Shown: positions 973 through 36,599, numbered from the stretch's first letter. The stretch is DNA of 36,599 bases from an uncultured Clostridia bacterium (GCA_944388555.1 CALXJH010000038.1:1-36599); one strand, 5' to 3'. Program-made: numbers and translations. Notes: generated from the sequence alone by a model not told the origin.

Positions 973-980
973 TAATAGAT

Positions 981-1024: not shown

Positions 1025-1035
1025 CTGAGACAAAG

Positions 1036-1790
1036 ATAACCCCCTGCTCTGCAGGGGGGGGAAAAAATAGCGTATAGCGAGGAGTAGAGTATACACGAAA
1101 AAAAGCTCCCTGTTATAATAGAAGTGGTTTGCCGACCACACAACTAAAATAACAAGGAGGTCTTACTCGTGAAAGAGCAAGACATAAATAGTTTAGACCA
1201 TACAAGCTGGAGATGTCAATACCATGTTGTATTTGCACCGAAGTACAGAAGACAAGTAATTTACAGAGAGATAAAGGCAGACATAGGAAAAATACTGAGA
1301 AGATTATGTGAGCAAAAGGGAGTGGAAATAATAGAAGCGGAATTATGTCCTGACCATGTGCATATGCTGATAAGTATACCGCCGAAATACAGTGTGTCGC
1401 AGATAATGGGATACTTAAAAGGGAAGAGCAGCTTAATGATTTTCGACAGACATGCAAATTTAAAGTATAAATACGGAAACAGGCACTTTTGGGCAAGAGG
1501 GTACTATGTGGATACAGTCGGACGCAACAAAAAGCAAGTGCAAGAATACATCAAGCATCAGTTGGATGAAGACCAAGTAGCAGACCAAATGAGCATAAAA
1601 GAATATATCGACCCGTTTACGGGTAACGAGAACAAGAAGGCATAATTAAAAACCCCTTAAGGGGTAGCCCGAAAAAAGAATGCAGTCGGCGAACCTTTTC
1701 GGCGCCCCTTTAGGGGTTTCGTCTGTAAAATGCCCTTTTAGGGCTTATTCAAGTCTCCGGCTTAGCCGGAGGTTTTGACTTTTTAATAAA
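1036..1790 (+). mobile_element. IS200/IS605-family insertion sequence (tnpA only); boundaries approximate
   Basis: A Y1 transposase gene is flanked by structured ends. Left end: an 8-bp stem with a 3-nt loop, ccccctgc-tct-gcaggggg (1040-1058). Right end: a series of short hairpins between about 1650 and 1785 (ccccttaagggg, cccctttagggg, gcccttttagggc, ctccggcttagccggag). No inverted terminal repeats were seen, as expected for this family. Confidence 0.75.
1169..1645 (+). CDS. tnpA: IS200/IS605-family Y1 (HUH) transposase TnpA
   Basis: 158 aa with a GTG start 8 nt after GGAGG. Family hallmarks are present: YHVVFAPKYRR, the HUH motif in CPDHVHMLISIPP, and FWARGYYVDTVG containing the catalytic Tyr region. 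Confidence 0.93.
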   Translation: MKEQDINSLDHTSWRCQYHVVFAPKYRRQVIYREIKADIGKILRRLCEQKGVEIIEAELCPDHVHMLISIPPKYSVSQIMGYLKGKSSLMIFDRHANLKYKYGNRHFWARGYYVDTVGRNKKQVQEYIKHQLDEDQVADQMSIKEYIDPFTGNENKKA

Positions 1791-7700: not shown

Positions 7701-10700
7701 TAAACGTAATATCCGATGTTAACGTATCGTTTTCGTAATCCCAGATAACGCCGCCGCTCGCCCAGCCTGCAAAAGCAACGCCCTGCTTTGACGGTGCCAA
7801 AGGTTCTGTTATTTTTTCTCCGTAATTTACCGTTTCTGTTGTATACACCTGTCCGTCTACCACATACGTAACAGTGTGCTGATCGATTTCAACGCCCGTT
7901 ACAGTGATTGTCTGATCAGCTGAAATGTTTTGGAGTGTATAGGTATAGACATTTCCGCTTACGCTCGGCGTGAGCAGTACGCCGTTTGCATATACACGCA
8001 TATTTTCTGCGTTATAGTGCTCTGCAATCGTCACATTAAATGTGTAGTTTCCGCCATAGGCGACATTTGTACTATTTGTCGATGCAACCGTATATCCGCT
8101 GCCGCTCTGCGCCGGTGTTACATGCAGGGTATTTGCTGTGAACTGTGCATATACCGACATGTTTTGATCCAGAATCGTTGACTCATTTATCTCCGTTCCA
8201 CCTGCCGGCTGACTAAACCAGCCGATAAATGTGTAACCTTGTTTTTCAGGCGGATTTGGCAGTATGATTGTATCAGCGTTACCTTCAATGGAAGATTGTG
8301 TATAATATAGTCCTCCGCTGTAGTAAAATTCCGCAGTATAGATTGTCTTTGCGTCTGCTGTTGCCACAAAGCAAACCGGTCCGGTTATCTGATAATTTCC
8401 ATCCGAAATCAACACCGCATTTTCCTGCGGAATCGCTGTGATAACGGGTACGTCATATCCATCAGCGCTTGCTGCGGTAATCTTAACCGTTCCGTTATAC
8501 GCAACCTCGTTTGCACTTATGCTTCCGTTTACACCATCACCCATAACAAGAGAAACTGCATATCTATTTATCTCCCATTGTGCGTAAAGTGTGATATTGG
8601 AATTTAAATTCAATTCGTCTCCTGCACGGTAACTTGTACCTGTTCCGTCGGCTTTTGTATTCCAGCCAGTAAAGGTATAACCTGTACGAGCGGGAATATC
8701 AGAGCTCAATGCCAGCACAGTATCATGCAGTTTTGTTTGATTACCGGGAACCAAAACGGGCTCCGTTGTATTTTCATCATATTCTACGGTATATGTATTA
8801 GCAATCCACTTTGCATAAAGCGTTACCGCACTTGTTATATCGGTTTGGAAATCATATGGTTGATTACAATCTTTATCTATATACCAGCCCCCAAATGTAT
8901 ATCCGTACCTATCTGGTGCAATCGGCTGTGACACCTTTAATCCCGCCTCTACGGTACTAATCAGAAAGATACTGCCGTTGCTGACAAAAGTAACGGTATA
9001 TTGCGGGTTCGGCGTTACGGAAATCGAAATCACCGGCTGCGCTTTAACGGAAGTAACTGTATAAGTAAATACATCTCCGTTTCTCGTGCCATCCAAAGTC
9101 TGCCCGTTTACGTATACAACAGGCACTGCCGTTTTATATCCGTCTTTAAGCGTAACTGCAAAGCTAAAATTCTTTCCGCTTTCAACAGTTGTGTTTTTGG
9201 GAGAAACGCTATAGCCTGTGCCGTCATTGAGTATAATACTGAATGTTTCCTTAGTAACGTTATATAGATTAACACTTGTGTCGGCAGATATATTTTTTAT
9301 ATTATAGCTATAGGTGTTTGCGCTTGTCTGAACAGCTCCAAGCATAATTCCGTTTGCCAAAACAGCCATTTTGTCCGCGCTGTAGCCATCCTCTACAGAT
9401 ACGCTGAACGAAAGCTCTTCATTTCCGCTAACGGTCACATCTTTCTCTGTTGTTAATTCGTTTCCATCATAATATACATGATAACCTTCACCAGAAGAAG
9501 GAAGTGTTACCGTATACGTTTCATTTTTAAGAATGACTGCATACAGATAAACTGTTGAAGTGTTTTCACCGGTAAGGCCTGTTGTGATTTCCTGACCGTC
9601 CCTGTAATAAACTGTATCACTTCCCGAAGCGATGGACCAGCCTTTGAAAGAATATCCCTCCGGAACAGAAATTTCCAGCATATCTGCTTTAGGCAGGGAA
9701 AAACTTTGTCCGTAAACAGCTTCCATTTCGCTGACAATCGCGCCTGCTCCGTTTATAAATGCCACGTTATACTTCACAGGCTCCCACGCCGCATATAAAT
9801 AAAATTCAGAAGAAACGCTGTTCCATGGATTTGTCTTGTAATAGTCCGACAAATTCATATTTTGATCGTATACCAATTCTCCTGCTTTATTTGCCGATGT
9901 ATAATAGCCTGCAAATATAAATCCGTATCTTTTCGGTGCCATTAACCCTTCGTTCGGCAGTATCTGTCCATATTCGACCTCGCAGGAAGGTGTCCCGGAA
10001 GTTCCGCCCTCCGAACAAAACAGGACTGTTGTTTTTGCACTCTCCCAAACTGCATAAAGCGTGATTTCCGTACCCTGAACATCTGCAAGATTCTTTACGA
10101 CCGCACCGTCGACATATGCAATTTCTCCGTTTGGTGCGTACGACCAGCCGGCAAACTGGTTTCCGTCTTTTTGAAAGATATTGCCAGCAAGCGCAAATTC
10201 CTGATCATATGCAGCGGAAGACGATGTCATAATACCGCTGCCGCCGTTTGCATTATATTTAACTGTATAGTTTATCGGCTCCCATACAGCATACAATACA
10301 GCGTCCTCCGCCGACATCAGAATCGTGTCGCCGCCGTGATATATTGTACCTGCAAAATCCGGTGTTTTGCTCCAGCCGCTGAAAATATACCCGGTTCTGT
10401 CAGGCTGAACAGAGGTTATATACGCTGTATTACCGTTTGTGTAAACTTTCATGTCCACAGGCGCATTCATACCGCCGTTTGCATGATATATTACATTTAC
10501 AGAGGACGAATCAGAAACAACAACCGATGAATTGCCTCTTACCTCGAATCTGTATTTGCCATCATCAGGCAAAACCCGGACGCCGTTTATATATACCTTG
10601 GGATTTGCACCGCTTACGGTAAATTCCGCATACTCGCCAAACTTATATCCGTCGGCGTCTATACCGTTAATCGAATAACCACTTGCCGCACTCGTCTTAA

Positions 10701-13536
10701 CTTCATATTGGATTGGTTCGTATACCGCGTAAAGCACCGTATCCCGATCAGGCATCGTATATGGCGATGATAGAATATCGGCAGTTGCTGCCGTTTCATT
10801 TTCTGCCCATCCAAGGAACACATATCCTTCTTTATGCGGCTGCGCGCTGGTAAGCGTAACACTGCTTCCGGCAGCCGGATATGTTACGCCCGCATAGGTA
10901 CTGAAAATCCCGCCGTTTGCATTGTATGAAAGCTCAGGATTTTTCTTCCATACTGCAAAAAGGGTGACAATAGAATTTCCCATTGTAAAACGATCACCCG
11001 GCTGATACTGCGCTGCAGCTGCATTGGATGTTTCCGCCCATCCGATAAATGTATAATTTTGGCGGGTCGGAACGGAAGAACTAAGTGTAATGGTTTCATC
11101 AACGTGCGCTTCCACAGCTGAAGGCGCTCCCTCACCGCCGTTGGCATCATATGTTACAGTATATTTATCTTTTTCAAGCCATGCCGCATATACATATGCT
11201 GTCTTTCCCTGCTCCGTTACAAGACCTGCCGAATAATCTGTATCGGCAATGTACATTGCCCAATTCTGCTCGTCATAAATATTCCAGCCTACAAAATTGT
11301 GATTTGCATAAGAAATTCCCAAGCTTTCGGCAGATGGCAGACGAAGTGCACCATAAGTAACATTGCTTATGGAACCGACATTCTCTCCTCTGCTGTAAAG
11401 CTGGATATTGTATGTAATCGGCGTCCAATATGCGTAAAGGGTAATCCCTTCCGTCATTTTATATGCTGCCGCAGAAGAACAATCCGCATTGTAATACTTC
11501 GTTCCGCCTCCATTCATTTCACTGAAATATCCGCCGAATATATAGCCAGGTTTATCCGGGGCAACGATGACCGGCATCTGGCTGTCATAGGTCGCTGTAA
11601 CCGTTACACCGCCGCTGCCGCCTTGCGCATTTAACATCACATCGTATGTATTGGGTATCCACTTGGCATAAAGTGTAATGCCGCTGTCTGTGTTGAAAGT
11701 TTTGGCAGATGCGCCGTTTGCGTAATAATACTGTACGCCTTCTCCGTTTATATTCTCAAAATATCCGTCAAACGTATAACCCTCTCTGGCAGGAGGCTCA
11801 ATTACAGGCAACGCCTGATCATAAGTTGCAGTGACGCTGTCTGTGCCGCCTATGCCGTTTTGCTTATCGAAAGTAACAGTATGTGCATTGGCAGTCCACG
11901 CCGCATAAAGCGTAAGTCCGTCTGTTTTATCGTATTTTCTGGCAGAAGTTGCATCCGCATTGTAATATTTCACACCGGCTCCGTTTTGCTCTGTATAATA
12001 TCCGCTGAAAGTGTAACCTGTTCGTACCGGTTTTGTGATTACCGGCATATCCTTTTCATAGGTTGCCGTAACCGTCCCGCTTCCTGAACCGCCCTGCGCA
12101 TCAAGGGTGACGGTATACTCCTTCGGCGTCCATTTTGCATAAAGCGTTATATTCCCGGTCTTGTCATAATTTTTTTCTGAATTTCCGTCATACTCATAAT
12201 ACTGCGTCCCTGAACCGTTTCTTTCGGTGTAATATCCTCCGAAAGTATATCCATCGCGGGCCGGAGGCGTAACAGACGGCAAACTTTCAAGATATACCGC
12301 GTCCATACGTTCCGTGCCGCCGCTGCCGCCTTGCATATCCAGCGTAATGGTATAGGTTTGCGGTAGTGCTGCAGCTGTAATTTCGATATTCCCTGTCGTT
12401 GCGGCGGAATTTATCAAAATTTGTCCCCCTGCCGAATCGTAGCTGTAATCGGTTATGACTCTGCCGTCTACTTTTACCGTAATACTACCCGGCAGCTTGT
12501 ATCCGGCGACAGGTGTGAGCGTTGCTGCATATGCCGTTTTATACTGCACGGTCGTATTTCCGGTAAGATTTAAATATGTAAGATTTTTTGCCACATTAAA
12601 AACAGATTTGTATAGAACATTTCCAACAGAAAGCCCTTCGTCTGAATAACTGTACTCGTTTCCCGCATCATCTCTGACTGAAAGTCCTGCTATTTTTTTA
12701 AGCTGCACGTTTGTATTTGTGCCTATATTGGCTAGGGTTGTTGTAAAATATACGGTTTGTCTGTCCGCGGAATAGGTGATGTCATAACTTACGTTTTCTG
12801 CGATTGACAAATCTATGGCCGGATTCTTGCTGACCGTCACAGGTTCGCTAAAATCAATCGCGTATGTAATCTCATCTTCCGGCATCACATAAGCCGGTAA
12901 GCTTGTATCATGATTTACCGCGTAAAGATAAGGAGCAGTTTGAACTGCCGGGGTCGTTTTGTCAAAGAAAATCATACTAAACTCATACATACCAAAGAAG
13001 GCTCCGCCATTACCCAAGGTTTCCCTGCCCTCATACACAATATAAGAGGTACCGGCAGGAATGGGCGACTCCCCTATCGTTAAAGTCTCCGTTCTGCCGC
13101 TAATGGAATATTTTGAATAACGATCATTGTAGGTTACTAAAACAGCGCCTGCGGCATTATAACAAATAATATTTAAATTTGCTGTAAGGTTTCTCGAACC
13201 CTGTGCATAAAATTTACCCGAAGCCGACAATGTTAATTCTCCGTTGTTTGCACGGATGACATCCGCATCGGTCAGAGTCACTCTCTGTCTTACAGCAATA
13301 TTTTCCCCTGTTCTTGCGCCGATTATATATCGGTCATCCTTGCCCAGTCCCAGATATTTGCCATAAGAACAGTTTTCACGCTCCCAATAATCGTTTGATG
13401 TAGGATATGGGTTCAGTAATACATTGGTACCGTAACCATAAACGCTTGCCTCTGCCGCAGCCGGCAGCACCATTGATGGTATGAACGACACAACCATACA
13501 TAGTACCGTAAATAGTGATATCATTCTTTGCTTCAT
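4759..13536 (-). CDS. Giant (2925 aa) secreted, SLH-anchored cell-surface protein with many Listeria-Bacteroides-type (Flg_new-like) repeats
   Basis: - RBS GAGGAGAAG upstream of the ATG.
- Signal peptide MKQRMISLFTVLCMVVSFIPSMVLPAAAEA.
- A roughly 190-aa N-terminal beta-rich domain.
- About 19 repeats ending in an (L/V)YA.W motif (GYTF.GW...G..Y....TLYAKW), by my count.
- About 7 interspersed Ig-like modules.
- A Gly/Ser linker, SGGSSGGGSGSSSTGGGNSGGSSGTGS.
- Three C-terminal SLH motifs (FDDVKQDDWYY..., FEDVDAKAYYAEAV..., FNNISAYAIPSVQY...). Confidence 0.95.
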   Translation of the reverse strand: MKQRMISLFTVLCMVVSFIPSMVLPAAAEASVYGYGTNVLLNPYPTSNDYWERENCSYGKYLGLGKDDRYIIGARTGENIAVRQRVTLTDADVIRANNGELTLSASGKFYAQGSRNLTANLNIICYNAAGAVLVTYNDRYSKYSISGRTETLTIGESPIPAGTSYIVYEGRETLGNGGAFFGMYEFSMIFFDKTTPAVQTAPYLYAVNHDTSLPAYVMPEDEITYAIDFSEPVTVSKNPAIDLSIAENVSYDITYSADRQTVYFTTTLANIGTNTNVQLKKIAGLSVRDDAGNEYSYSDEGLSVGNVLYKSVFNVAKNLTYLNLTGNTTVQYKTAYAATLTPVAGYKLPGSITVKVDGRVITDYSYDSAGGQILINSAATTGNIEITAAALPQTYTITLDMQGGSGGTERMDAVYLESLPSVTPPARDGYTFGGYYTERNGSGTQYYEYDGNSEKNYDKTGNITLYAKWTPKEYTVTLDAQGGSGSGTVTATYEKDMPVITKPVRTGYTFSGYYTEQNGAGVKYYNADATSARKYDKTDGLTLYAAWTANAHTVTFDKQNGIGGTDSVTATYDQALPVIEPPAREGYTFDGYFENINGEGVQYYYANGASAKTFNTDSGITLYAKWIPNTYDVMLNAQGGSGGVTVTATYDSQMPVIVAPDKPGYIFGGYFSEMNGGGTKYYNADCSSAAAYKMTEGITLYAYWTPITYNIQLYSRGENVGSISNVTYGALRLPSAESLGISYANHNFVGWNIYDEQNWAMYIADTDYSAGLVTEQGKTAYVYAAWLEKDKYTVTYDANGGEGAPSAVEAHVDETITLSSSVPTRQNYTFIGWAETSNAAAAQYQPGDRFTMGNSIVTLFAVWKKNPELSYNANGGIFSTYAGVTYPAAGSSVTLTSAQPHKEGYVFLGWAENETAATADILSSPYTMPDRDTVLYAVYEPIQYEVKTSAASGYSINGIDADGYKFGEYAEFTVSGANPKVYINGVRVLPDDGKYRFEVRGNSSVVVSDSSSVNVIYHANGGMNAPVDMKVYTNGNTAYITSVQPDRTGYIFSGWSKTPDFAGTIYHGGDTILMSAEDAVLYAVWEPINYTVKYNANGGSGIMTSSSAAYDQEFALAGNIFQKDGNQFAGWSYAPNGEIAYVDGAVVKNLADVQGTEITLYAVWESAKTTVLFCSEGGTSGTPSCEVEYGQILPNEGLMAPKRYGFIFAGYYTSANKAGELVYDQNMNLSDYYKTNPWNSVSSEFYLYAAWEPVKYNVAFINGAGAIVSEMEAVYGQSFSLPKADMLEISVPEGYSFKGWSIASGSDTVYYRDGQEITTGLTGENTSTVYLYAVILKNETYTVTLPSSGEGYHVYYDGNELTTEKDVTVSGNEELSFSVSVEDGYSADKMAVLANGIMLGAVQTSANTYSYNIKNISADTSVNLYNVTKETFSIILNDGTGYSVSPKNTTVESGKNFSFAVTLKDGYKTAVPVVYVNGQTLDGTRNGDVFTYTVTSVKAQPVISISVTPNPQYTVTFVSNGSIFLISTVEAGLKVSQPIAPDRYGYTFGGWYIDKDCNQPYDFQTDITSAVTLYAKWIANTYTVEYDENTTEPVLVPGNQTKLHDTVLALSSDIPARTGYTFTGWNTKADGTGTSYRAGDELNLNSNITLYAQWEINRYAVSLVMGDGVNGSISANEVAYNGTVKITAASADGYDVPVITAIPQENAVLISDGNYQITGPVCFVATADAKTIYTAEFYYSGGLYYTQSSIEGNADTIILPNPPEKQGYTFIGWFSQPAGGTEINESTILDQNMSVYAQFTANTLHVTPAQSGSGYTVASTNSTNVAYGGNYTFNVTIAEHYNAENMRVYANGVLLTPSVSGNVYTYTLQNISADQTITVTGVEIDQHTVTYVVDGQVYTTETVNYGEKITEPLAPSKQGVAFAGWASGGVIWDYENDTLTSDITFTAQWSDNVYTVTPAQSGSGYTVASTDSTNVAYGGNYTFNVTIAEHYNAENMRVYANGVLLTPSVSGNVYTYTLQNISADQTITVTGVEIDQHTVTYVVDGQVYRENNVVYGSKLTLPANPSKEGMRFAGWAYETSIWDFDNDIVECDMTLIAQWEILTYHVTLPSSNAAYTVTGNGDMVQYGGEYSFAVAVASGYNMDNIIILSNGTELSPVSIDGDVIYCTISNITENITVTIRGIGIDTYAITYHSAVTEYVANMPEGQIKEHGGSIILSNLEPQRYGYTFEGWAAKADGEVIYNPGAEYTVDEDLDLYAVWVPMTYTITYETNGGMINSGAVNAYVYSVGAVLPTDVTKDGFDFIGWYDNEFFEGVRVTTITPTDSGNKKYYANYSVSDVIPNSYEGEYDGNAHILEYALVNELTVQTYQWYFKATGTTSFVPVESDSALFYMVRNVSDSGEYYCYVEALQNGYVVRFNTGTATVHITKKPLSIKANDAEKCYDALPLTSGEFAFTDGTNPVSGHIVDVTMTAASTITNAGTTENAVQDVAVYDMNHNDVTANYEIKHTPGTLTVTKLPLTIEGNTVSKYKNTSVTESELYKISGTLNSEKLSLDNVSLAITNSKGQTFNSLEDIITEIGTYTVVITFNGITGDSCENYIGSGSIISNITVKARPSGGSSGGGSGSSSTGGGNSGGSSGTGSENTASNYVISFDTNGAEKIENVTVVENQILNEPEKPDREGYIFEGWYTDKALTTEYNFSSKVTKSFTLYAKWTKNITDNDDDSGNQSGDEPSDEDNLAWENPFDDVKQDDWYYDDVCYAVENALFNGTTNKTFDPNGIITRAMLVTVLYRAEGNPEVTGTVTFEDVDAKAYYAEAVVWGQQNGIIKGYSETEFAPDQNIIREQIAAIIHRYAKYKGIDTTDKEGTNILSYIDFNNISAYAIPSVQYVVGSDLMKGKSTTTFNPNDNATRAEIAAILHRLNNTNKE
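7393..8122 (-). repeat. Intragenic tandem duplication with a 450-bp period; two copies of about 280 bp at about 94 percent identity
   Basis: 7393-7672 aligns with 7843-8122 with about 16 mismatches by hand alignment. The encoded 92-aa modules (TPAQSGSGYTVAST(N/D)STNVAYGG...HTVTYVVDGQVY) differ at one residue. Confidence 0.9.
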
Positions 13537-19369: not shown

Positions 19370-20209
19370 TTAAAATATGCGCTTCATTACATTACTTCTA
19401 TTTAGTTTTAAAATAGAAATCGTTGCCGCTCCAGAGCGATTTTCTACATTGCTGTTATAAGTGAGCGTAAAATTTGTCTGCGCAGGCACATAAATGATGA
19501 TTGCGTTTGCGCCCCAAGCACTTGATGCGTTTGTATTTGTTTTAAAATATATGCCGTTCTCTAAATGCGCAGTTCCATTATATGAAGGTGTAATTTGCAT
19601 ATAGCCGGCAGTGTCTAAAACTGTTGAGACGCTGTAATCTATAAAATAATATCCAGGTTGTAAAACAATTTCTGTATTATTTGTAAGAACAATATTTCCA
19701 CTTGGGTCATTTATATCTGTTATAAAAGGTATTGATTGGGCATTTGTAAACCGAATCTCAAAAATTCCAAAAGACGCAAAGGTTTCTATGCCCGGTTCTC
19801 CCTGCGGGCCTTGCGGCCCCTGTTCTCCTTGGGGGCCCTGCGGGCCTTGTTCTCCTTGGGGGCCCTGCGGACCTTGTTCTCCCTGGGGACCTTGCGGCCC
19901 CGGTTCTCCCTGCGGGCCTCGCGGCCCCTGTTCTCCTTGGGGACCTTGTGGTCCCTGTTCTCCCTGGGGACCTTGTGGTCCCTGTTCTCCTTGGGGGCCC
20001 TGCGGGCCTTGTTCTCCCTGGGGACCTTGTGGTCCCTGTTCTCCCTGGGGGCCCTGCGGGCCTTGCGGTCCCTGTTCCCCCTGTGGACCTTGCGGCCCTT
20101 GACAGCAACAGCATTTCTTATTTGTGCTGCCGTCTATATTGCAAAACCATATTGGTTTGTTAAATAACTTTACTTTTTTCATTTTATTATTTATACACTC
20201 CATTACCAT
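19370..20209 (-). CDS. Collagen-like triple-helix repeat protein with a BclA-type (C1q/TNF-like) C-terminal domain
   Basis: 34 uninterrupted G-X-Y triplets (GPQGPQGEQ units) preceded by KKCCCC. A 139-aa beta-rich C-terminal domain follows, with the pattern of exosporium BclA C-terminal domains. The ATG at 20182 (MKKVKLF) is an alternative start. Confidence 0.85.
19793..20098 (-). repeat. 27-nt (9-aa) tandem repeat array encoding the collagen-like region
   Basis: GGNCCNCAR/GGNGARCAR units are visible directly in the sequence. The region is GC-rich relative to its surroundings, and all other frames are open as an artefact. Confidence 0.9.
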
Positions 20210-27365: not shown

Positions 27366-27758
27366 TTAATAAAACTTTTTCTCGTCTTTTAACATATTCA
27401 GCTGATTCATAATTTCTCCGAAACGCTGGAAATGTACAATCTCACGTTCCCGTAAAAAACGCAGCGGATCAATAACATCCGGATCATCTGCAAGATCCAA
27501 TAAATATTCATACGTCGATCTTGCTTTTTGTTCCGCTGCCATATCTTCTGCGATATCCGTAATGGGATCACCTTTTGATTGAAGTGCCAGCGCATTAAAC
27601 GGCATTCCGCCAGGTGACATCGGATATACACCTAAGCCATGATCTACATACATAGGTCCGTATTCACGCATTATCTCTGCATCAGAAGCGCCCCTTAAAA
27701 GCTGTCTTACCATTGTGCCGACAATTTCCATATGTGCCAATTCTTCTGTACCATCACC
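27366..27758 (-). pseudogene. cotJC: 3' segment (C-terminal ~130 codons) of a split cotJC-type manganese catalase gene
   Basis: Reads GDGTEE-LAHMEIVGTMV...KGDPITDIAEDMAAEQKARSTYEYLL...LRFLREREIVHFQRF...KDEKKFY. It has no plausible native start. The frame is closed by TAA at 27759-27761, immediately upstream of the conserved GTEE. It matches the C-terminal two thirds of CotJC/Mn catalases, including three metal ligands. Confidence 0.85.
27741..27752. repeat. Left copy of a 12-bp direct repeat (ttcttcTgtacc); candidate att core of the intervening element
   Basis: Identical at 11 of 12 positions to 31601-31612. Both copies encode G-T-E-E on the minus strand. Confidence 0.7.
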
Positions 27759-27805
27759 TTATCATTTATCAAGTCTAAAACGCCTTGTTAAAAACAGTTT
27801 ATTTG

Positions 27806-27840
27806 TAAAACAAAAGCAGCAGGAAACTCAATTCCTGCCG
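27806..27840 (-). terminator. Terminator of the beta-helix gene, just inside the left end of the element
   Basis: Stem gcaggaa (27819-27825) pairs with ttcctgc (27832-27838). The minus strand continues with TTTTGTTTTA. Confidence 0.65.
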
Positions 27841-27865
27841 CCGTTATATTTGCTGTATTGGGCGA

Positions 27866-29485
27866 TTATTTACTCTGTATTTCTGTTTCTTTGCAGTGAT
27901 CCGTTTTAATCATATCCCCTGTGCAGTTTGTCATTTGATTGTTTTGAAAAATCACATGCTCGGTATTATTTAAGGAAGCAAGTAAACTGTCGCAATTTTT
28001 AAACTCATTTCCCGAAATTTCCACTTTCCCGTGAAAATATTTGTCAACTTCTGTACGTTCTCTTGGCTGCATTTCAATCACCGCAGTTCCCCACAGCGCG
28101 TATTTGCAATGATCAAATGTATTGCCTGTAATCAAAACATCTTTTGTTCCGCCCGACTCATACCAGTACTTTCCGTCGCTTTCAAACTTAATAGCACTTC
28201 CGGGCGTCTGAAATAAATTATTGCGTATAACGGTCTTTCCGGCGGAGGCTAAAAGCATGCCGCGCGCACGGTTATTCCGAACAATGCAATTTTCAAAGCA
28301 CACCTCCGGCTTCCAGGAAATCTCATCTGCCACATCCCCTACTTTTACAGTTTCTGTAGTACCATCCAGCACAACCTCCATATAATCCAGATTGATTTTC
28401 CGCACTTCCTGTACAGTAAACTGATGGTAAGGAATCAATGTCTCGGCATTGGAAATCTGCAAAATTGCATCTTTGTCTACAATTTGTATTCCTCTTGCCT
28501 CTGGATGCATAAACTTCAATATCAGCGACCGTTCTGTTTTATCTACAATTTTTAAATAAATGCTATGTACATTTAAAGCGTCATCCAACTGCCCTTCAAA
28601 ATAGCAATCCCGAATACTGATCTTTCCTTTGCAATGCACAAAATGCGTTCCGTCGGCATTGATGGAATAATATCTTCCGTTCCGTGTTCTGGTTGAAAAA
28701 TGATCCACAGAAATTGTATCACTGTTCTGTGCAATGATCCCCATGCCGATTCCGCTGTATAGTGTAACATTTGAAATCGTTGTATTTTCGCTTTGGTTGA
28801 TGAATATATTGGATACACATCTTGTTCTTGACATAAAAACCAGCTTGTTTCCCGGCTGTATTTTCCTGTCTACCCCTTTACCCTCGGCCCGGATTGTTCC
28901 CTTACCTGTTTCAGAAAAATCAATCTTACTGTCCGGTTTATCAAAAAAAGTATCCGCGGCATGTGGTACCAACCACCCGGTTTTCTTATCCACCTCATCA
29001 AAAATACAGAGTTTTTCATGCACACCCTGCCTATCTCCCACATATAAATCTGCGCCGTATACATAATACGGCAAATTGGTTTCCATGCGCATTTCAAACC
29101 AGTTATCCCCTGACGCTACAACCTCTGCTTGTGCATTCAGTGTATTTAAGGATGAAAAAGTGAAATTTTTTACCGTCACGTTTTTAGATTTGGATATAGC
29201 TACCGGGAACAAAATATCATCGAAAATAAATTCGCTTTCGCCGCCGTCTAAAATAAAATTCTCAAAGTTCTCCAACAAAAAACAAATACGCTTTAATCCC
29301 GGATCCGAATGATTCGAAACAGAAAAAAAGGTTTCGCTTGCTTTTTCACTTTTTACATGATATACGCCCTTTTCAAAAACCAAGCCATCTTCGCCCGTTT
29401 TTTTACAATATTCCAGTGCATTTAAAATATTAAATGCCACATCTTTTGTTTTTTCAAACTGTTTGTAATTTACCATTTTACTCAC
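27866..29485 (-). CDS. Right-handed parallel beta-helix repeat protein (pectate-lyase fold, possible glycosidase), with no signal peptide
   Basis: 539 aa. Repeated beta-helix turns are present, including CIVRNNRARGMLLAS, VIRNNLF, LITGNTF and ISGNEF. The N-terminus is hydrophilic. Confidence 0.8.
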   Translation of the reverse strand: MSKMVNYKQFEKTKDVAFNILNALEYCKKTGEDGLVFEKGVYHVKSEKASETFFSVSNHSDPGLKRICFLLENFENFILDGGESEFIFDDILFPVAISKSKNVTVKNFTFSSLNTLNAQAEVVASGDNWFEMRMETNLPYYVYGADLYVGDRQGVHEKLCIFDEVDKKTGWLVPHAADTFFDKPDSKIDFSETGKGTIRAEGKGVDRKIQPGNKLVFMSRTRCVSNIFINQSENTTISNVTLYSGIGMGIIAQNSDTISVDHFSTRTRNGRYYSINADGTHFVHCKGKISIRDCYFEGQLDDALNVHSIYLKIVDKTERSLILKFMHPEARGIQIVDKDAILQISNAETLIPYHQFTVQEVRKINLDYMEVVLDGTTETVKVGDVADEISWKPEVCFENCIVRNNRARGMLLASAGKTVIRNNLFQTPGSAIKFESDGKYWYESGGTKDVLITGNTFDHCKYALWGTAVIEMQPRERTEVDKYFHGKVEISGNEFKNCDSLLASLNNTEHVIFQNNQMTNCTGDMIKTDHCKETEIQSK

Positions 29486-29558
29486 TCTCTCATCTAAAAA
29501 TGTGATTACACCTAAATCCGTTCTAAATTATAGCAGAAATTAGCTTTGAATGCAACCA

Positions 29559-29741
29559 CTATATCTCATCTTCCGAAAGTTCTACCCCATTTTCTATATA
29601 AATTTTTGATATGGCTTCTAAAATTTCTTTTATTTTATCCGCAGACTTAATACTATAAGCATCCGAGAGAACGATGCGCGTATGTCCAAGCACAAAGCTT
29701 TGCACCACATGCTCGGTTTCGCATGAAAAAAATTTTTCCAT
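29559..29741 (-). CDS. 60-aa hypothetical protein, divergent from the recombinase gene (candidate accessory or directionality factor)
   Basis: ATG 9 nt after GGGGAGG. It is co-directional with the beta-helix gene and has an acidic C-terminus. No family was recognised with confidence. Confidence 0.6.
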   Translation of the reverse strand: MEKFFSCETEHVVQSFVLGHTRIVLSDAYSIKSADKIKEILEAISKIYIENGVELSEDEI

Positions 29742-29757
29742 TATTCTATTCCTCCCC

Positions 29758-29785
29758 GTATTTCGTTTTGATTTCTGTCATACAT
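29758..29785 (+). promoter_or_regulatory. Sigma-E-like (mother-cell) promoter motif upstream of recombinase A; speculative
   Basis: GTATTT (29758-29763), a 15-nt spacer, and CATACAT (29779-29785), compared with the remembered B. subtilis SigE consensus ATATT...CATACA-T. This is a motif match only. Confidence 0.25.
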
Positions 29786-29869
29786 CCTTTCTATTCCGAC
29801 CTTCACGTTCTAAAGAAAATCCCTTTGTGCATAAACAATAAACAGATACTATTTCAAGGAGATTATCTT

Positions 29870-31462
29870 ATGAATTATTGTATATATCTTCGCAAATCGC
29901 GCGCCGACGCAGAAGCAGAAACACGCGGTGAAGGAGAAACGCTTTCAAAACATGAACATATTCTGCTTGCACTTGCCAAGCGTATGCAGGTAGATATTGA
30001 TAAAATATATAAAGAAATTGTTTCGGGAGAAACCATTGCGGCAAGGCCAGTTGTACAACAATTGCTATCCGATGTTGAGAAAAGAAAATGGGATGGCGTC
30101 TTTGTTATGGAAATTGAGCGTCTTGCACGCGGAGATACTATGGACCAAGGCTTCATGGCACAGGTCTTTAAATATTCGGGAACAAAAATTATTACACCTA
30201 TAAAAATATATGATCCAGAAAACCCATTTGATGAAGAGTATTTTGAATTTGGACTTTTTATGTCCAGAAGAGAATTTAAAACAATAAACCGCCGCTTACA
30301 ATTAGGCCGCCAAAGCTCTGCCCAGGAAGGAAATTTCTTAGGCAGCATTCCGCCGTACGGATATCAGAAAATAAAAGCAAAACAAGGTAAAGGCTTTACT
30401 TTAAAACCTATACCGCAGGAAGCAGAAATCATTAAGCAGATTTATATAAGCTATGCCATAGGCTGCATTCAAGAGGATGGTACACGTGTTCCGATTGGCA
30501 TTTCTAAAATTGCAAAAAACTTAAATTCCCTGCATATTAAACCTAAAAAGGGGGAATTTTGGAGTGCTTCTTCGGTTCGAGACATTCTAATCAATCCTGT
30601 CTATATCGGTAAAATTCGTTGGAATTTCCGCCCTGTAAAAAAAATCATGAACGATGGAATTCTCCGGCAAACGCGTCCCCGGAATGATAAAAATCATTAT
30701 ATTTTAAACCACGGAAAGCATGTGGCTATTATTTCAGAAGCGCTGTTTATGGAGGCGCAAAAAAGGATGCAGCAGAATCCGCCGCATCCTGTTGCCGGAC
30801 ATGCCACTTTAAAAAATCCACTGTCCGGGATTGTGATTTGTTCAAAATGCGGAAGAACTATGCAAAGACGCCCTTCCGGTAAAAATGGCAAAAGCACTTT
30901 AATGTGCCCTGAGCCTTCCTGTAATAATATCAGCGTTTCACTGGAAGAAGTAGAGAAAAAAATATTAGACGCACTTAGAGCTGCATTACAAAGCTATTCA
31001 CTCAATTCTCAAAATTCCAACCGCGATCTATCATTCCAAACGAATGCGATACAAACCGAAATCAAATTTACAGAAAAGCAGCTTAAGCGTCTGCACCAAC
31101 GCCTCGACAGGCTCTATACCCTGCTGGAGGAAAACATTTATACAAAAGAAATTTTCTTAACGCGATCGTTTGCACTCAAACAAGCGATAGAGAAAAACAC
31201 TGCCGCGCTAAGAAAATTAAACGTACAATTAAACAACCAAATACATGCATCTAAGACCCCACCTCCGTCTATAGACGCTGTTCCTATTTTAAAATTTTAT
31301 AACAAACTGCCGTCCGCGCAGGCAAAAAACGAGTTGTTAAAACAAATTTTAGAAAAAGTTGTCTATACCAAAACAAAAAACGGACAGTGCAAAAACACAA
31401 GTCCGGATGATTTTGAAATTATATTATATCCTAAAATTCCATTTCATAAGGACAAAACTTAA
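29870..31462 (+). CDS. Large serine recombinase (SprA/YokA-like subgroup)
   Basis: Starts at the ATG at 29870, 8 nt after GGAG; the ORF-track extension to 29723 is rejected. The N-terminus YLRKSRADAE carries the catalytic Ser. Conserved blocks: VMEIERLARGD, IITPIKIYDPENPFDEEYFEFGLFMSRREF and PPYGYQK. A Cys-rich zinc-ribbon block (CSKCG...CPEPSCNN) and a coiled coil follow. Confidence 0.92.
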   Translation: MNYCIYLRKSRADAEAETRGEGETLSKHEHILLALAKRMQVDIDKIYKEIVSGETIAARPVVQQLLSDVEKRKWDGVFVMEIERLARGDTMDQGFMAQVFKYSGTKIITPIKIYDPENPFDEEYFEFGLFMSRREFKTINRRLQLGRQSSAQEGNFLGSIPPYGYQKIKAKQGKGFTLKPIPQEAEIIKQIYISYAIGCIQEDGTRVPIGISKIAKNLNSLHIKPKKGEFWSASSVRDILINPVYIGKIRWNFRPVKKIMNDGILRQTRPRNDKNHYILNHGKHVAIISEALFMEAQKRMQQNPPHPVAGHATLKNPLSGIVICSKCGRTMQRRPSGKNGKSTLMCPEPSCNNISVSLEEVEKKILDALRAALQSYSLNSQNSNRDLSFQTNAIQTEIKFTEKQLKRLHQRLDRLYTLLEENIYTKEIFLTRSFALKQAIEKNTAALRKLNVQLNNQIHASKTPPPSIDAVPILKFYNKLPSAQAKNELLKQILEKVVYTKTKNGQCKNTSPDDFEIILYPKIPFHKDKT

Positions 31463-31600
31463 AATCTGAAACCACAGCTATTAAGAATGTTTTATTTTAT
31501 TTTTTCGTTCTTTATAGCTGCGTTATTTTTTTACGGCAACCATACATACTCTACAAACTATTTTTGCTCACTGTTTTTAAGCGTATCCTATGTGTACGGA

Positions 31601-31612
31601 TTCTTCGGTACC
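31601..31612. repeat. Right copy of the 12-bp direct repeat (ttcttcGgtacc)
   Basis: See 27741-27752. Confidence 0.7.
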
Positions 31613-31726
31613 AATATCATTTAATACGCCTTTTCCTTCTTTCAGCGGCATTGCATATCTTTGTGATAAATAACGCAATGACGCGCTCAACTCGCCATCC
31701 GGACCACCGAATGGAAACTGTTTGAG
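31601..31726 (-). pseudogene. cotJC: Middle segment (42 codons) of the split cotJC-type manganese catalase gene
   Basis: Hand translation gives LKQFPFGGPDGELSASLRYLSQRYAMPLKEGKGVLNDIGTEE. For comparison, B. subtilis CotJC reads YLIEQYGGADGELAAALRYLNQRYTIPDKVIGLLTDIGTEE (from memory). After GTEE the frame degenerates (SVHIGYA, then a stop at 31577-31579). Upstream it is cut by the TGA at 31727-31729. Confidence 0.8.
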
Positions 31727-33139
31727 TCATTGGTGGAAAATTAAATGAACCTCTTTACAATCATTTTTCTGATTAAGGGTGATTTCTTTAAAAACAATGC
31801 GTGCAAGTCGGTTTTTTTCCGTATTATCCGCATCACCTTTCAAAATTTGCAGGATACTTTGCGGATGTTCTGAAATATCTGTGCTGTGGTTATCGTTTTG
31901 TACGTATTTTCTTACTGTTTTCAAATCTTTTGCTGCATGCTTTTTAGCCTGCTTGTATTCGTCAAGCGTATAAATGCCGGCTTCATATGCTTCCCGTGCA
32001 CGCTGTAAACGTTTATTCACAGCACAATGCATGTCGGCACCTATCGAAGATCTAAAGTTAATTTGATTTTCTTGTTCAAATAAATATTTTTCTGTTGTAT
32101 TATAAATTTCAGACAGAGCATTCAGAACAATTTTTTCTATATTCTTTGCTGCAATATATCCTACTCCGGAGCACAAGCCTCTTGCTTTCTTGGAACAGCC
32201 AAAATACCCGCCCTGGTTGGAAAGCACAGCGTTACAGATACCACATCTTGCAATACCGACCAGCCAGTGGGATACCTTGCATTTCACAGAAGGCGCATAT
32301 TTTTTAGACTCTTGTTTTAGTCTTTTTAATCTCAACTGCGCAGCATTCCAGGTATCTGTATCTATAATCGGTGCGTGTGTGCCCTGCGCAATTATGGCTG
32401 TTGGAAGGTCATAATTTCTCGAAAGACTGCCTGTCGGATTCCAGCGCATTTTTCCTATATATACCGGATTATGCAGCCAATAAACAATCGTACGGCTTTC
32501 AATTTTGTTTCCTCTGTGGGTTGTAATTCCCCATTCATTAAGTTCCTTTGCAATTTTTAAATATCCGTTTCCTTTTATAAAATCGCTGAAGACTTTTTTT
32601 ATAACAAAAGCTTCATAGGGCTGTACAATATACTTGCCGTCTTTTACTGTATATCCAAACGGAGCACCCGACAACACGCCTCCCCTCTTTGCCTTTTCCG
32701 TCATGCCTCTTTTGACTTCTTCGGCAAGATTCAAACTGTAATATTCATCCATTGCTTCTATAATTGCTTCAAACAGCACCGACATTTTATCGTCCCCTAC
32801 AGGTTCGCTTACAGAAATTACATCAATGCCATATTCTTTCCGGAGCATAGATTTATATACGACGCTGTCCTCACGGCTTCTTGCAAAGCGGCTGTATTTC
32901 CAAACCAGAATCATATCAAATGGTTTTGGTTTGGTTTTAGCCATCGCAATCATTTTATTGAAGGCAGTGCGCCGCTTGGTATTTCGGCCGCTGATTCCCT
33001 CATCTATAAAAATTAGATGTTCATCTAAAACAATATGATTGGAAAATGCATATTTCTTTAATGCCGACAGCTGACTATCCGGACTAAACTCCGCCTGATC
33101 TTCCGTAGATACGCGTATATACCCTGCGGCTCTTTTCAA
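31727..33139 (-). CDS. Large serine recombinase (SpoIVCA/TnpX-like)
   Basis: TTG start after GGAGGGG. The N-terminus GYIRVSTEDQ carries the catalytic Ser. Further blocks: WKYSRFARSREDSVVYKSML, a recombinase domain and a Cys-rich zinc-ribbon block (CGICN...CSKKARGLCS). The stop codon abuts the catalase middle segment in the same frame. Confidence 0.92.
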   Translation of the reverse strand: MKRAAGYIRVSTEDQAEFSPDSQLSALKKYAFSNHIVLDEHLIFIDEGISGRNTKRRTAFNKMIAMAKTKPKPFDMILVWKYSRFARSREDSVVYKSMLRKEYGIDVISVSEPVGDDKMSVLFEAIIEAMDEYYSLNLAEEVKRGMTEKAKRGGVLSGAPFGYTVKDGKYIVQPYEAFVIKKVFSDFIKGNGYLKIAKELNEWGITTHRGNKIESRTIVYWLHNPVYIGKMRWNPTGSLSRNYDLPTAIIAQGTHAPIIDTDTWNAAQLRLKRLKQESKKYAPSVKCKVSHWLVGIARCGICNAVLSNQGGYFGCSKKARGLCSGVGYIAAKNIEKIVLNALSEIYNTTEKYLFEQENQINFRSSIGADMHCAVNKRLQRAREAYEAGIYTLDEYKQAKKHAAKDLKTVRKYVQNDNHSTDISEHPQSILQILKGDADNTEKNRLARIVFKEITLNQKNDCKEVHLIFHQ

Positions 33140-33324
33140 TCCAACCCCTCCACGCTATCAGGACTCTGTCGCTTGACTTTTCTTCCGTAATAGCTTTCGA
33201 GGATTCTTATTTCCGATTGTATTTTCCACTTGTTTAATTGCGATTCTGTGTCAAATGCTTCCTCAAATCGTTTTTGCAGCCCTCCTTTACACGATATGTA
33301 ATTTATTACATTACAGGCATTCAT
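33136..33324 (-). CDS. 62-aa hypothetical protein translationally coupled to recombinase B
   Basis: ATG at 33324, 7 nt after GGAGGTG. Its TGA stop overlaps the recombinase TTG start (TTGA). The ORF-track start at 33363 lacks an RBS. Confidence 0.6.
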   Translation of the reverse strand: MNACNVINYISCKGGLQKRFEEAFDTESQLNKWKIQSEIRILESYYGRKVKRQSPDSVEGLD

Positions 33325-33407: not shown

Positions 33408-34430
33408 TTATAAATCACATCGGTCGCCGTACATTTTTTCATAATATTGTACATATTCGCCGCTGATTATCTTTTCCCACCAGGATCGGTTATCTAAGTA
33501 CCACTGCACTGTTTTTACTATGCCGTCCTCAAATTTTGTTTCCGGCAGCCATCCTAAGGTGCGATGTATTTTTGTAGGGTCAATGGCATAGCGCATGTCG
33601 TGTCCTTTTCGGTCTGCGACATATGTAATCAGGCTTTCGGGTTTATCAAGCAATTTTAAGATTATTTTAACAATCTCAATATTAGATTTTTCATTATGAC
33701 CGCCGATATTGTAAACTTCTCCGGCTTTTCCTTGATGCAGAATCAAATCAATTGCCTTGCAGTGATCTTCAACATATAGCCAGTCCCGTACATTCAGCCC
33801 ATTGCCATACACGGGCAAAGGTTTATCGTTTAAAGCATTTACAATCATCAAAGGAATCAGCTTTTCAGGAAAATGATAGGGGCCATAGTTATTCGAACAG
33901 CGTGAAATAGTAACCGGCAAGCCGTATGTTCTGCCATAAGCCTGTACCAGCAAATCTGCACTGGCTTTAGACGCACTGTATGGACTTGACGTGTGGATGG
34001 GCGTTTCCTCGGTAAAAAACAGGTCCGGCTGATCTAAGGGCAAATCACCATACACTTCATCGGTCGATACCTGATGATACCTTTGTATACCATATTTACG
34101 GCATGCATCCATCAAAACCTGCGTTCCCATGATATTGGTCAGAAGAAAAACTTCCGGATTTTCAATGGAACGGTCCACATGGCTTTCCGCTGCAAAATTT
34201 ACTATCATATCGGGCTTTTCTTCTTCGAACAGCTTATAAACTGCCTTTCTGTCGGCAATATCCCCTTTAATAAATTTAATCTTATCCATCACAGGCTGCA
34301 ATGTTTCAATATTTCCGGCATAGGTCAGCTTATCGAGTACAATCAAACGATCATTCGGATATTTTTTCACCATATAGTGAACAAAGTTTCCGCCTATAAA
34401 CCCTGCGCCGCCCGTTATTACAATCTTCAT
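33408..34430 (-). CDS. rfbB: dTDP-glucose 4,6-dehydratase
   Basis: [21 protein letters not shown] Rossmann motif, the [11 protein letters not shown] catalytic YxxxK, and a length of 340 aa. Confidence 0.95.
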
Positions 34431-34433
34431 AAA

Positions 34434-35297
34434 CTATTCCTCCAACAATGAAAGCACATACTTTCCATAATCCGTCATACTTAACTCTTCTCCGATTTTC
34501 TTAAGCTGAGATTGATTGATAAATCCTCTGCGCCACGCAATTTCCTCAATGCAGGAAACATATACTCCCTGCATTTCCTGTATTGTTTGCACAAACTCGC
34601 TCGCTTTTATCATGGAAGCGGGCGTTCCAGTGTCCAGCCAAACCATTCCTCTTTGCATGATTTGCACATGAAGTTTTCCTTTTTCTAAATATGCATTGTT
34701 TACCGCTGTAATTTCTAACTCACCGCGCGCGGACGGCTGAATTTGTTTTGCGATCTCAACAACCGTATTATCATAAAAATACAAACCCGGAACAGCGTAA
34801 TTAGACTTGGGGTTTTTCGGTTTTTCTTCTAAAGAAATTACATTTCTGTCCGCGTCAAACGCTACAACGCCAAAAGATGTTGGATTTTTCACATAATAGC
34901 CGAATATAACTGCGCCATCCAGATTTTTCTTTGCATTTATAAGAATTTTTGTAAAATCTTTACCATAAAAAATATTATCTCCCAGAATAAGGCACACACT
35001 ATCGTCTCCAATAAAGTGCTGGCCAATAATAAAAGCCTGTGCAAGCCCTTTGGGCTGTTCCTGTATTGCATAGGAAATCGATATACCCAGTTTGGAGCCA
35101 TCTCCCAAAAGGCGCTGATAAACGGAGATATCCTCCGGCGTTGATATGATAAGAATCTCCCGGATACCTGCCAGCATCAGGCTGGAAAGCGGATAATAAA
35201 TCATAGGTTTATCATAAATAGGAAGCAGCTGCTTTGATACTGCTTTCGTCATAGGATAAAGACGGGTCCCCCGCCCGCCCGCTAATATAATACCTTT
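34434..35297 (-). CDS. rfbA: Glucose-1-phosphate thymidylyltransferase
   Basis: [39 protein letters not shown]. Start taken at the ATG at 35297, 6 nt after GAGGTG, rather than at 35330. Confidence 0.95.
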
Positions 35298-35499
35298 CAT
35301 TTGCGGCACCTCATCTATTCTATAATACATTTTTCTGCTGTATGCAAAACATAAATTCAGCTTCTGTCTTAAACAAATCCATCCCCCTGGTCTTAATGCG
35401 GAAGTGACTGCATAATGGCGTAGGATAAACGCAAGCGTTTATTATTCTGAGCAGCTGTATCCTGGATTTACTTACATTACGCCAAAATAATACTGTTAT

Positions 35500-36599
35500 T
35501 TATATCGTTATTTCACGCAATATTAGATCACAAATTCTGTCTACATCCTCAAGCGCCAGATCCGCATATAAAGGGAGGGTAAGCACTTGCTCGGAAGCTT
35601 TTTTTGCAATAGGGGTATCTTGTATTTTAAAAAGGTCTCTATAGCATTCAAATTCATTGGTGAGCGGATAGAAATATTTTCTTGCGTATATACCGGACTG
35701 CATTAAATTTTCAGCAACTTGATTTCTGGATATGCCAAGTACTTTTTCGTCAAACAATACCGGATAATACGCCCAGTTGGAAATAACCTGCTCCTGCGGC
35801 TGATTAAGTTTTAGCCCTGGAATACCTGCAAGACGCTCTGTATAGCGTTGGGATGCTCTTTTTCGTTTGGCGATTTCTTCATCTACATACCGCAGATTAC
35901 ACAGTCCCATTGCCGCCTGAAATTCGTTCATTTTTGCATTTCCAGCAATTTCAGGATAATGTTCACTATCTGCCATTCCGAAATTTTTTTGCATACGCAA
36001 TTTTGCTGTAAAGTTTTCATCCGAATAAGCAACGCATCCGCCTTCTATCGTATTAAACACTTTCGTGGCATGAAATGAAAACATAGACGCATCTCCAAAC
36101 GAAGCAATGCCTTTGTCTCCGATACGCACACCAAAGGCATGCGCAGCATCATAAATCACTTTAAGACCATACTGATCTGCAATTTTTTGAATTGCGTGCA
36201 CATCACACACATTACCATATACATGAACAGGAACAATGGCACATGTTTTTTCAGTAATCAAAGGTTCTATTTTAGATGGATCCAAGGTATAGTTTTCAGG
36301 GTCAATATCACAAAAAACGGGTGTCAGTCCGCATCTTACGATTGCTTGTGTCGTTGAAGCAAAAGTAAACGGAGTTGTTATAACCTCGCCTTTAAGATCC
36401 ATTGCCGCAATCGCAGCTTCCAAAGCCAAATGACCGTTTGTAAATAGCGACACATTCGATACAGACAGATAATCACATAACCTGCGTTGTAATTCCGCAT
36501 GCTTCTGTAACATATTGGAAAGCCAGAGACTTTCCCACAATTCTTTATTTTCGTTTATGTATTCGTGAAATGAGGGCATTGAGGAACGGGTTATATTGA
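35500..36599 (-). CDS. DegT/DnrJ/EryC1/StrS-family PLP-dependent sugar aminotransferase; the 5' end probably lies beyond the window
   Basis: SFHATKVFNTIEGG contains the PLP lysine, and the overall pattern is typical (NGHLALEAAI, VPVHVYGN). The reading frame stays open to the window edge. Confidence 0.9.
   Translation of the reverse strand, partial: NITRSSMPSFHEYINENKELWESLWLSNMLQKHAELQRRLCDYLSVSNVSLFTNGHLALEAAIAAMDLKGEVITTPFTFASTTQAIVRCGLTPVFCDIDPENYTLDPSKIEPLITEKTCAIVPVHVYGNVCDVHAIQKIADQYGLKVIYDAAHAFGVRIGDKGIASFGDASMFSFHATKVFNTIEGGCVAYSDENFTAKLRMQKNFGMADSEHYPEIAGNAKMNEFQAAMGLCNLRYVDEEIAKRKRASQRYTERLAGIPGLKLNQPQEQVISNWAYYPVLFDEKVLGISRNQVAENLMQSGIYARKYFYPLTNEFECYRDLFKIQDTPIAKKASEQVLTLPLYADLALEDVDRICDLILREITI

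Follow-up and report, generated by a model that had tools for sequence, protein, structure and literature searches.

A cotJC-type spore-coat catalase gene lies in pieces beside large serine recombinase genes in an uncultured Clostridia bacterium

We analysed a 36,599-nucleotide contig of an uncultured Clostridia bacterium (GCA_944388555.1 CALXJH010000038.1:1-36599, hereafter the window), in which a gene for a CotJC-type spore-coat manganese catalase lies in pieces on the minus strand, next to genes for two large serine recombinases (LSR-1 and LSR-2). An earlier note on this DNA had described two of the pieces and the recombinase element between them (element 1). The central features, with open reading frames given as ORFs and attachment sites as att, are these:

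27366..27752, minus strand: C-terminal cotJC fragment (GTEE-LAHMEIVG...KDEKKFY; stop at 27366-27368), residues ~61-189 of intact CotJC
27741..27752: attR1 core, the repeat copy on the C-terminal-fragment side (plus strand TTCTTCTGTACC), with the putative crossover at GA of the second Glu codon
27753..31612: element 1, 3,860 bp, with a beta-helix cargo gene, a small ORF and LSR-1
29870..31462, plus strand: LSR-1, a 530-aa large serine recombinase (Resolvase, Recombinase and Zn_ribbon_recom domains), convergent with the middle fragment
31601..31612: attL1 core, the repeat copy on the middle-fragment side (plus strand TTCTTCGGTACC)
31601..31711, minus strand: middle cotJC fragment (FGGPDGELSASLRYLSQRYAMPLKEGKGVLNDIGTEE), 36 codons, residues ~29-64
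31701..31708, minus strand: core of the second junction (GGTGGTCC, codons G-G-P)
31727..33139, minus strand: LSR-2, a large serine recombinase of 470 aa bordering a second element (element 2), its stop codon abutting the middle fragment

Minus-strand translation of 31726..31601 gave LKQFPFGGPDGELSASLRYLSQRYAMPLKEGKGVLNDIGTEE, after which the frame reads SVHIGYA and stops at 31579-31577, and translation of 27758..27366 gave GDGTEE-LAHMEIVG...KDEKKFY and the stop, as in the earlier note, which had read the two as consecutive parts of CotJC meeting at a 12-bp direct repeat with one mismatch. The fragments are 3,860 bp apart, a copy of the repeat lies beside each, and the single mismatch between the copies is synonymous. 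In-silico deletion of 27753..31612, the check that the note had proposed, left an open frame of 166 codons that matched the Pfam family Mn_catalase (PF05067) in one stretch (E = 2e-40, 139 bits against a cut-off of 27; residues 6-157 on profile positions 29-195) and aligned with intact 189-aa relatives at 83-85% identity with zero gaps across the junction, the GTEE-LAH motif being rebuilt. The C-terminal fragment was 86.7% identical to residues 62-189 of the protein P0003 and, like the middle fragment, contains no stop. The recognised ligand motifs were kept too, as had been claimed: their regions are invariant or nearly so in the family, and the invariant alignment columns E41, E42, H45, E112 and H145, which we take from Mn-catalase structures to be the di-Mn ligands (GEL..., TEE-xxH, AAEQKAR, REIVH), are all present in the joined ORF. 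Coincidence cannot realistically account for two neighbouring stretches of one protein family being brought together in frame at a repeated 12-mer. On this sequence evidence, the gene is a CotJC-type spore-coat Mn catalase split by a large-serine-recombinase element.

The LSR-1 gene ends 138 bp from the junction, again as the note had it. LSR-1 and LSR-2 each have all three Pfam domains and match the integrase family PHROG 95 at ~1e-100. The LSR-1 N-terminus reads YLRKSRAD, with R8, K9, S10 and R11 invariant in the family alignment; Ser10 is presumably the catalytic serine, as is general among serine recombinases. A protein search with LSR-1 returned 7,949 relatives at E<=1e-20, the nearest 56% identical over the full length, and a genome scan (one genome per species) gave at least 518; our locus counts refer to the best 80 of these at least 518 genome relatives, 76 of them with enough downstream sequence. 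A cotJC fragment lay 12-320 nucleotides (nt) from the 3' end of the recombinase gene in 51 of the 76 loci, and the break was always at residues 60-69. The adjoining piece was an N-terminal fragment convergent with the recombinase, as in the window, in 23 of these loci and a co-directional C-terminal fragment in 28. All three database relatives with fetched contigs (L006-L008) adjoin cotJC broken at the same codons, between ..DIGTEE and L/F-A/G-H, and belong to prophage-like elements with cI/S24 repressors, ImmA, SLT and Rep. Site specificity is thus family-wide, and the recombinase ORF was intact in 82 of 83 cases. One locus, L088, carries a C-terminal fragment (898..1260, plus strand) and an N-terminal fragment (11619..11825, minus strand) on opposite strands ~10 kb apart, with the recombinase gene beside the N-terminal one; recombination there would invert and not delete the intervening DNA, unless the pieces come from different gene copies.

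The family also reaches into cultured phages, with 47% identity to the integrase of Paenibacillus phage phiIBB_Pl23 and ~40% to integrases of C. tetani phages and of C. perfringens PhiS63, itself a functional sigK-intervening phage (PMC3442830). The layout matches that of the skin and SPbeta intervening elements, as the note had it. Complete elements at the GTEE site measured 2.67 kb (L081, L090), 2.88 kb (L021), 3.86 kb (window) and 6.4-8.6 kb (L089, L080, L063, L069). The recombinases of the mini elements are mutually 43-53% identical, and reduction must have occurred repeatedly, since each is nearer to a recombinase from a larger element. The note's remark that element 1 is unusually small did not hold, as relatives of 2.67-2.88 kb exist and the sigK skin elements on record span 2.6-48 kb (bioRxiv 10.1101/2022.02.25.481979). 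Cultured strains that carry an element of this family include Bianquea renquensis NSJ-32 (L080, 6.6 kb), Caproiciproducens galactitolivorans BS-1 (L042), Clostridium methylpentosum DSM 5476 (L046), Anaerocolumna aminovalerica (L006) and Paenibacillus medicaginis JCM 18446 (L083).

The direct repeat measured ~6 to 13 bp across the eight loci with both junctions. Reconstructed phage-type attachment sites (attP) are imperfect inverted repeats (CACTGAC...GTCAGTG in L021, ATATATAGC...GCTATATAT in L081), and because the two arms mirror each other around the GA in the second Glu codon, this is the likely crossover dinucleotide. From the centre outward, the family half-site consensus reads AT-nn-GTAC-n6-GTTATCAAT, and the window has two corresponding arms:

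27753..27790, minus strand: arm far from LSR-1, TGATAAG-GTGAT-GGTAC-AGAA beside the GA, matching the half-site consensus
31570..31600, minus strand: arm beside LSR-1, ATCC-GTAC-ACATAGGATACGC, with the inner GTAC kept and an outer motif weaker than in the family

On a position weight matrix derived from 50 arms of the family (family median, 21.1; random sequence, 6.8 at the 99.9th percentile), the LSR-distal arm reached 19.7 and the LSR-proximal arm 11.5, so that both are recognisable. Cutting at the GA in silico restored CotJC ORFs of 190-205 aa in L063, L069, L080, L081 and L090. In phiIBB_Pl23 (L096, NC_021865.1), a family-type attP lies at 3093..3150, directly 3' of the integrase gene, and its core GGTACAGAAGAG mimics the G-T-E-E codons, which predicts from sequence that this phage integrates into cotJC of P. 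larvae. The palindrome GGTACC, considered as the crossover because it would explain the two insertion orientations, was rejected: it is not conserved (L006, for example, has GGAACA), and the symmetry of the attP arms centres on GA.

The joined ORF lacks ~28 N-terminal codons (MWQYEKKLEYP...QY) and not ~23 as estimated before, owing to the LSR-2 gene that abuts the middle fragment. The upstream fragment is catalase only from FGGPDGEL onward; the LKQFP ahead of it, which the note had counted in, belongs to the second element. Intact relatives read ...AKLIISQYGGPDGEL at this point, and L005 and L006 carry cotJB, or cotJA and cotJB, immediately upstream of cotJC. The missing first exon was not found in the whole window searched with CotJC N-termini (tblastn and a motif search); the codons are missing because the second element runs off the contig. 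The gene is thus in at least three pieces: a first exon past the contig end, a middle piece (31711..31601) flanked by the 3' ends of two convergent recombinase genes, and a C-terminal piece (27752..27366). The note's claim that excision of element 1 would rebuild the ligand motif stands. The whole gene cannot be rebuilt by that excision alone: the second element cuts it between Y and GGP (the Y/GGP site), and the first exon lies outside the window.

The second site is also shared. LSR-2 relatives (40-52% identity) lie directly upstream of a cotJC piece starting at Y/GGPDGE in L001-L004, L021, L086 and L092, the LSR-2-type arrangement recurred in 50 of 71 usable loci of a metagenome scan, and complete elements at this site span ~3.1-8.3 kb (L147, L122, L124, L127, L175, L134, L021). 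L021 (Clostridiales bacterium CTOTU40279, 1..12000) holds a complete three-piece cotJC, in the order first exon (293-400), an 8.2-kb element with an LSR-2 relative and GGTGGGCCA repeated at both its ends, middle piece (8616-8726), a 2.88-kb element with an LSR-1 relative, and last piece (11594-11980). The gene is doubly interrupted in L086, L077, L117 and L164 as well, and probably in L147, L131 and L168. The window is a single metagenome contig, and its junctions are not covered by the two sister contigs that carry the same element (L093, ERZ26781170, and L094, ERZ28614382; 99.3% identity, matching window 29124..30704), as would be expected if a chimeric assembly had joined recombinase genes to catalase fragments. 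This is nevertheless very improbable: the order LSR-2, middle piece, LSR-1 element, C-terminal piece is found in independent assemblies including isolate genomes (L021, L086, L164 and others), and the junctions fall exactly at the family-typical cores. Since the same double interruption recurs in L021, L086, L077, L117 and L164, the architecture of the window is no accident of assembly.

In the databases, many proteins called at 162-163 aa have M..GGPDGEL as their start, and the proteins P0005, P0007, P0011, P0012, P0015, P0017 and P0029 are 162-176-aa 'Mn catalase' calls that begin at or just before GGPDGEL. From their sequences, these look like mis-called truncated genes left by second-site insertions; an LSR-2 relative lies upstream of one such call in L092, and L091 covers an insertion at this site from the end that lacks the recombinase.

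Beside LSR-1, element 1 encodes a small protein with a short motif upstream of it:

29559..29741, minus strand: 60-aa ORF, divergent from LSR-1, candidate recombination directionality factor
29758..29782, minus strand: weak promoter-like motif copy, TATGACA-N11-GAAATAC, upstream of the 60-aa ORF

The 60-aa ORF had no Pfam or PHROG family match, and a search of 5.8 billion proteins returned two near-identical copies only, such short, divergent relatives being missed by a word-based search. Recognisable relatives lie in the mini elements L021, L031, L081 and L090, and a hidden Markov model from five sequences found the family in 46 of the 80 LSR-1 loci, in 44 of them on the opposite strand to the recombinase gene and upstream of it. 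The small ORF is directly beside the recombinase gene in ten compact loci and in the window; in the prophage-like relatives it belongs to a block of small genes whose transcription points away from the repressor/integrase end. Recombinase, small ORF and att arms thus form a conserved recombination unit, and the 60-aa protein is a candidate directionality factor of LSR-1, which we regard as a lead.

In nine loci (L024, L031, L036-L040, L042, L043), a bipartite motif, TAGGACA-N10-12-GAATA(T/C), stands 41-45 nt upstream of the small-ORF start, and of ten strict matches across 2.8 Mb of double-stranded DNA, nine were at this position. Its first half resembles what we take to be the SpoIIID box (reverse complement TAGGACAA); from the fixed distance of 41-45 nt to the ATG and the second half-motif, a promoter would be the better fit. 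Read with the TCA or GTA in front of it, the motif is similar to the sigma-E consensus of B. subtilis, (T/G)(A/C)ATA(A/T)(A/T) ... CATACA(A/C)T (as quoted in 10.1101/2020.04.13.040188). A sigma-70 promoter scan gave no more matches than shuffled sequence.

The motif is confined to compact elements plus a few others and is absent upstream of the recombinase gene in 70 of 72 non-compact loci, a distribution that speaks against the view that element 1 is an ordinary small integrative element using cotJC as a safe bacterial attachment site (attB) and excised sporadically or under stress, with no link to sporulation. That view draws on the full-size relatives, which are clear prophages with repressor/ImmA modules, on the cultured-phage integrases within the wider family and on the weakness of the window's own motif copy. 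Pfam and PHROG searches found no phage structural, lysis, replication or transfer genes in element 1, which does not have the gene content of a prophage, and at 3.86 kb without replication, transfer or packaging genes it has no obvious means of spread. We consider an ordinary element improbable.

With modest confidence, we favour instead that cotJC, present in at least three pieces through elements of two large serine recombinases with unrelated sites, is rebuilt by excision in the mother cell. Element 1 would be a stripped-down descendant of the widespread cotJC-integrating prophage family that kept LSR-1, both att arms, the 60-aa ORF as likely directionality factor and one glycosidase-like cargo gene. 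LSR-1 dimers would bind attL and attR, the small protein would switch LSR-1 towards excision, and the cut at the central GA in the second Glu codon of G-T-E-E would release a 3.86-kb circle and fuse ...NDIGTEE to LAHMEIVG.... LSR-2 would act likewise at the G-G-P codons on element 2, which starts at 31727 and runs off the contig, and a whole cotJC would require both excisions. By analogy with skin, SPbeta and gin, excision would take place in the terminal mother cell, whose chromosome is discarded, and the spore would inherit the interrupted copy. This timing fits the cut gene, since CotJC homologues of C. difficile are late mother-cell sigma-K genes (PMC3789822); from these homologues, the gene whose coding region is cut here would be mother-cell-expressed as well.

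Whether this particular copy would still be excised is a separate matter. Neither stops nor frameshifts interrupt LSR-1, LSR-2, the small ORF or the two catalase fragments, and LSR-1 has every family-invariant column, the YLRKSRAD region included. Several observations weigh against the preferred explanation. At positions that are otherwise invariant, LSR-1 carries eight private substitutions, of which three are non-conservative; this is the largest number for any sequence aligned (partly an outgroup effect of the window in the alignment set). The LSR-proximal arm and the small-ORF motif are among the weakest in the family, the motif copy (TATGACA-N11-GAAATAC, 29782..29758) being the weakest of all. 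The 14 coding differences in L093 and L094 comprise nine nonsynonymous and five synonymous ones, and L094 has lost the start codon of the small ORF (ATG>ATC) and carries E21G at an invariant LSR residue; some of these differences may be errors, because the contigs are short and the coverage of L093 is ~1.4x. A search of JGI metagenomes for the empty attB of the window's species gave no match. The window contains neither cotJA and cotJB nor the first exon. Moreover, Clostridia often carry several CotJC paralogues, so that loss of one could be tolerated. We put the chance that the window copy still excises during sporulation at about one half, because intact ORFs and recognisable arms stand against private changes, sister-contig differences and no empty site.

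The same observations are what would be expected of a decaying relic, in which old prophages in cotJC lost their genes and then excision, leaving a permanent pseudogene tolerated through paralogues or because the gene is dispensable. The weak arm and promoter motif, the private substitutions of LSR-1, the ratio of differences and the two mutations in the sister contigs, and the need for two independent excisions all fit such decay, as does the statement that B. subtilis cotJC mutants have no apparent defects (PMC12122855). Against it, neither recombinase ORF, nor the small ORF, nor either catalase fragment has acquired a stop or frameshift, the metal-ligand motif regions are kept, and both arms score above random. 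Mini elements, besides, keep intact recombinases at deep divergence, and this would be difficult to account for if the recombinase were not under selection. We regard a relic as rather unlikely for the window.

Elements of this kind are familiar from skin, SPbeta, vfbin, vrin and gin. Skin in sigK (SpoIVCA in B. subtilis, CD1231 and CD1234 in C. difficile) resembles the window in its recombinase at the edge, its split mother-cell gene and, for the window in silico, the precise excision that restores the ORF. In C. difficile the mechanism is proven, with a small acidic directionality factor, CD1234, under sigma-E/SpoIIID control and a constitutive recombinase (PMC5025042). In contrast to skin, the target in the window is a coat enzyme gene cut twice by two recombinase families; because it does not encode a sigma factor, nothing downstream depends on it. 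SPbeta is an active phage of 134 kb. In spsM, its recombinase SprA and a sporulation-controlled directionality factor, SprB, restore a spore-surface gene (PMC4191935, PMC5499854). It resembles the full-size relatives of element 1, which itself has no phage genes. Gin in gerE of B. cereus (GirC/GirX) is non-phage like element 1, combines a large serine recombinase with a small accessory factor and is excised in sporulation (PMC5595907). Gin measures 28.6 kb, has three recombinases and is a single insertion, whereas the window has 3.86 kb and one recombinase per element. Cyanobacterial heterocyst elements (the fdxN element, XisF) are likewise excised developmentally by large serine recombinases in a terminal cell, in another phylum, programme and set of targets. 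The best NCBIfam model for LSR-1 is XisF, below threshold (98.8 bits against a cut-off of 375). Several heterocyst elements in one gene are known; to our knowledge, a three-piece cotJC would be the first three-piece case among spore formers.

As a target, cotJC is on record in passing: its interruption is mentioned in bioRxiv 10.1101/2022.02.25.481979 and, with Abe 2013 cited, in 10.1101/2021.11.22.469490. These mentions, brief ones, concern a skin-like element that interrupts Laceyella sacchari cotJC (Galperin et al. preprint) and the place of cotJC among the interrupted sporulation genes listed by Abe et al. 2013. The phi027 prophage of C. difficile adjoins a CotJC-like gene (PMC11222575, PMC12122855). 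In the searchable literature, Abe 2013 excepted, neither insertion site, neither integrase family, nor the small-ORF family, the recurrent mini elements or the three-piece genes turned up in any description. A study of its own may be warranted for the wider pattern, of which the window would be one more example, possibly a decaying one.

More tentatively, cotJC could be a two-site hotspot for two orthogonal serine-integrase families in Clostridia and some Bacilli, both sites being filled in several lineages, that of the window among them, where the coat catalase would require two independent DNA excisions, and with elements repeatedly cut down to a minimal domesticated unit (integrase, a hitherto undescribed small directionality-factor family with a sigma-E-type promoter, att arms) kept as a developmental switch; we see this as possible and still doubtful. 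If excision is confirmed, cotJC would join sigK, spsM, spoVFB, spoVR and gerE as a rearranged sporulation gene, with the broadest distribution. For annotation, split genes now called truncated catalases would score as pseudogenes and may function after rearrangement. The two integrase families, having naturally defined attB/attP pairs and a candidate directionality factor, could serve as orthogonal recombinases.

The remaining features of the two elements are the following:

27815..27842, minus strand: terminator-like hairpin inside element 1, 3' of the cargo gene
27866..29485, minus strand: cargo gene, 539 aa, a right-handed beta-helix protein with a GLAA-B (GH110-type) beta-barrel domain
33136..33324, minus strand: 62-aa ORF overlapping the LSR-2 start codon, possible LSR-2 partner
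33408..36599, minus strand: three sugar-nucleotide genes between LSR-2 and the contig end (4,6-dehydratase/epimerase family, nucleotidyl transferase, DegT-type aminotransferase)

The cargo protein of element 1 matched Pfam Beta_helix (1.6e-13) and Beta-barrel_GLAA-B_II (9.9e-10), had no NCBIfam match, and no counterpart was found in the other fetched loci. Conservation between the 62-aa ORF and the equivalent ORF of L001 was marginal (E = 0.079). We take the dehydratase/epimerase and nucleotidyl transferase genes, which with the aminotransferase gene lie at 33408..36579, to be rmlB- and rmlA-like; all three sugar-nucleotide genes would belong to element 2 as cargo, provided that the first exon is located past 36599. 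An exact-protein look-up of the contig's last gene found no record. Cargo at the Y/GGP site varies widely, as the element of L001 (ENA ERZ19243351, 1..8000) carries RHS/YD-repeat toxin cassettes (TEN_YD-shell, Peptidase_M91, phospholipase-like).

Elsewhere in the window, a single 2,925-aa ORF occupies 4759..13536 (minus strand), with a GC content of up to 0.48, above that of its surroundings, and 19370..20209 (minus strand) encodes a 279-aa protein of collagen-triple-helix repeats (GPQGEQG) that recalls BclA-type exosporium glycoproteins.

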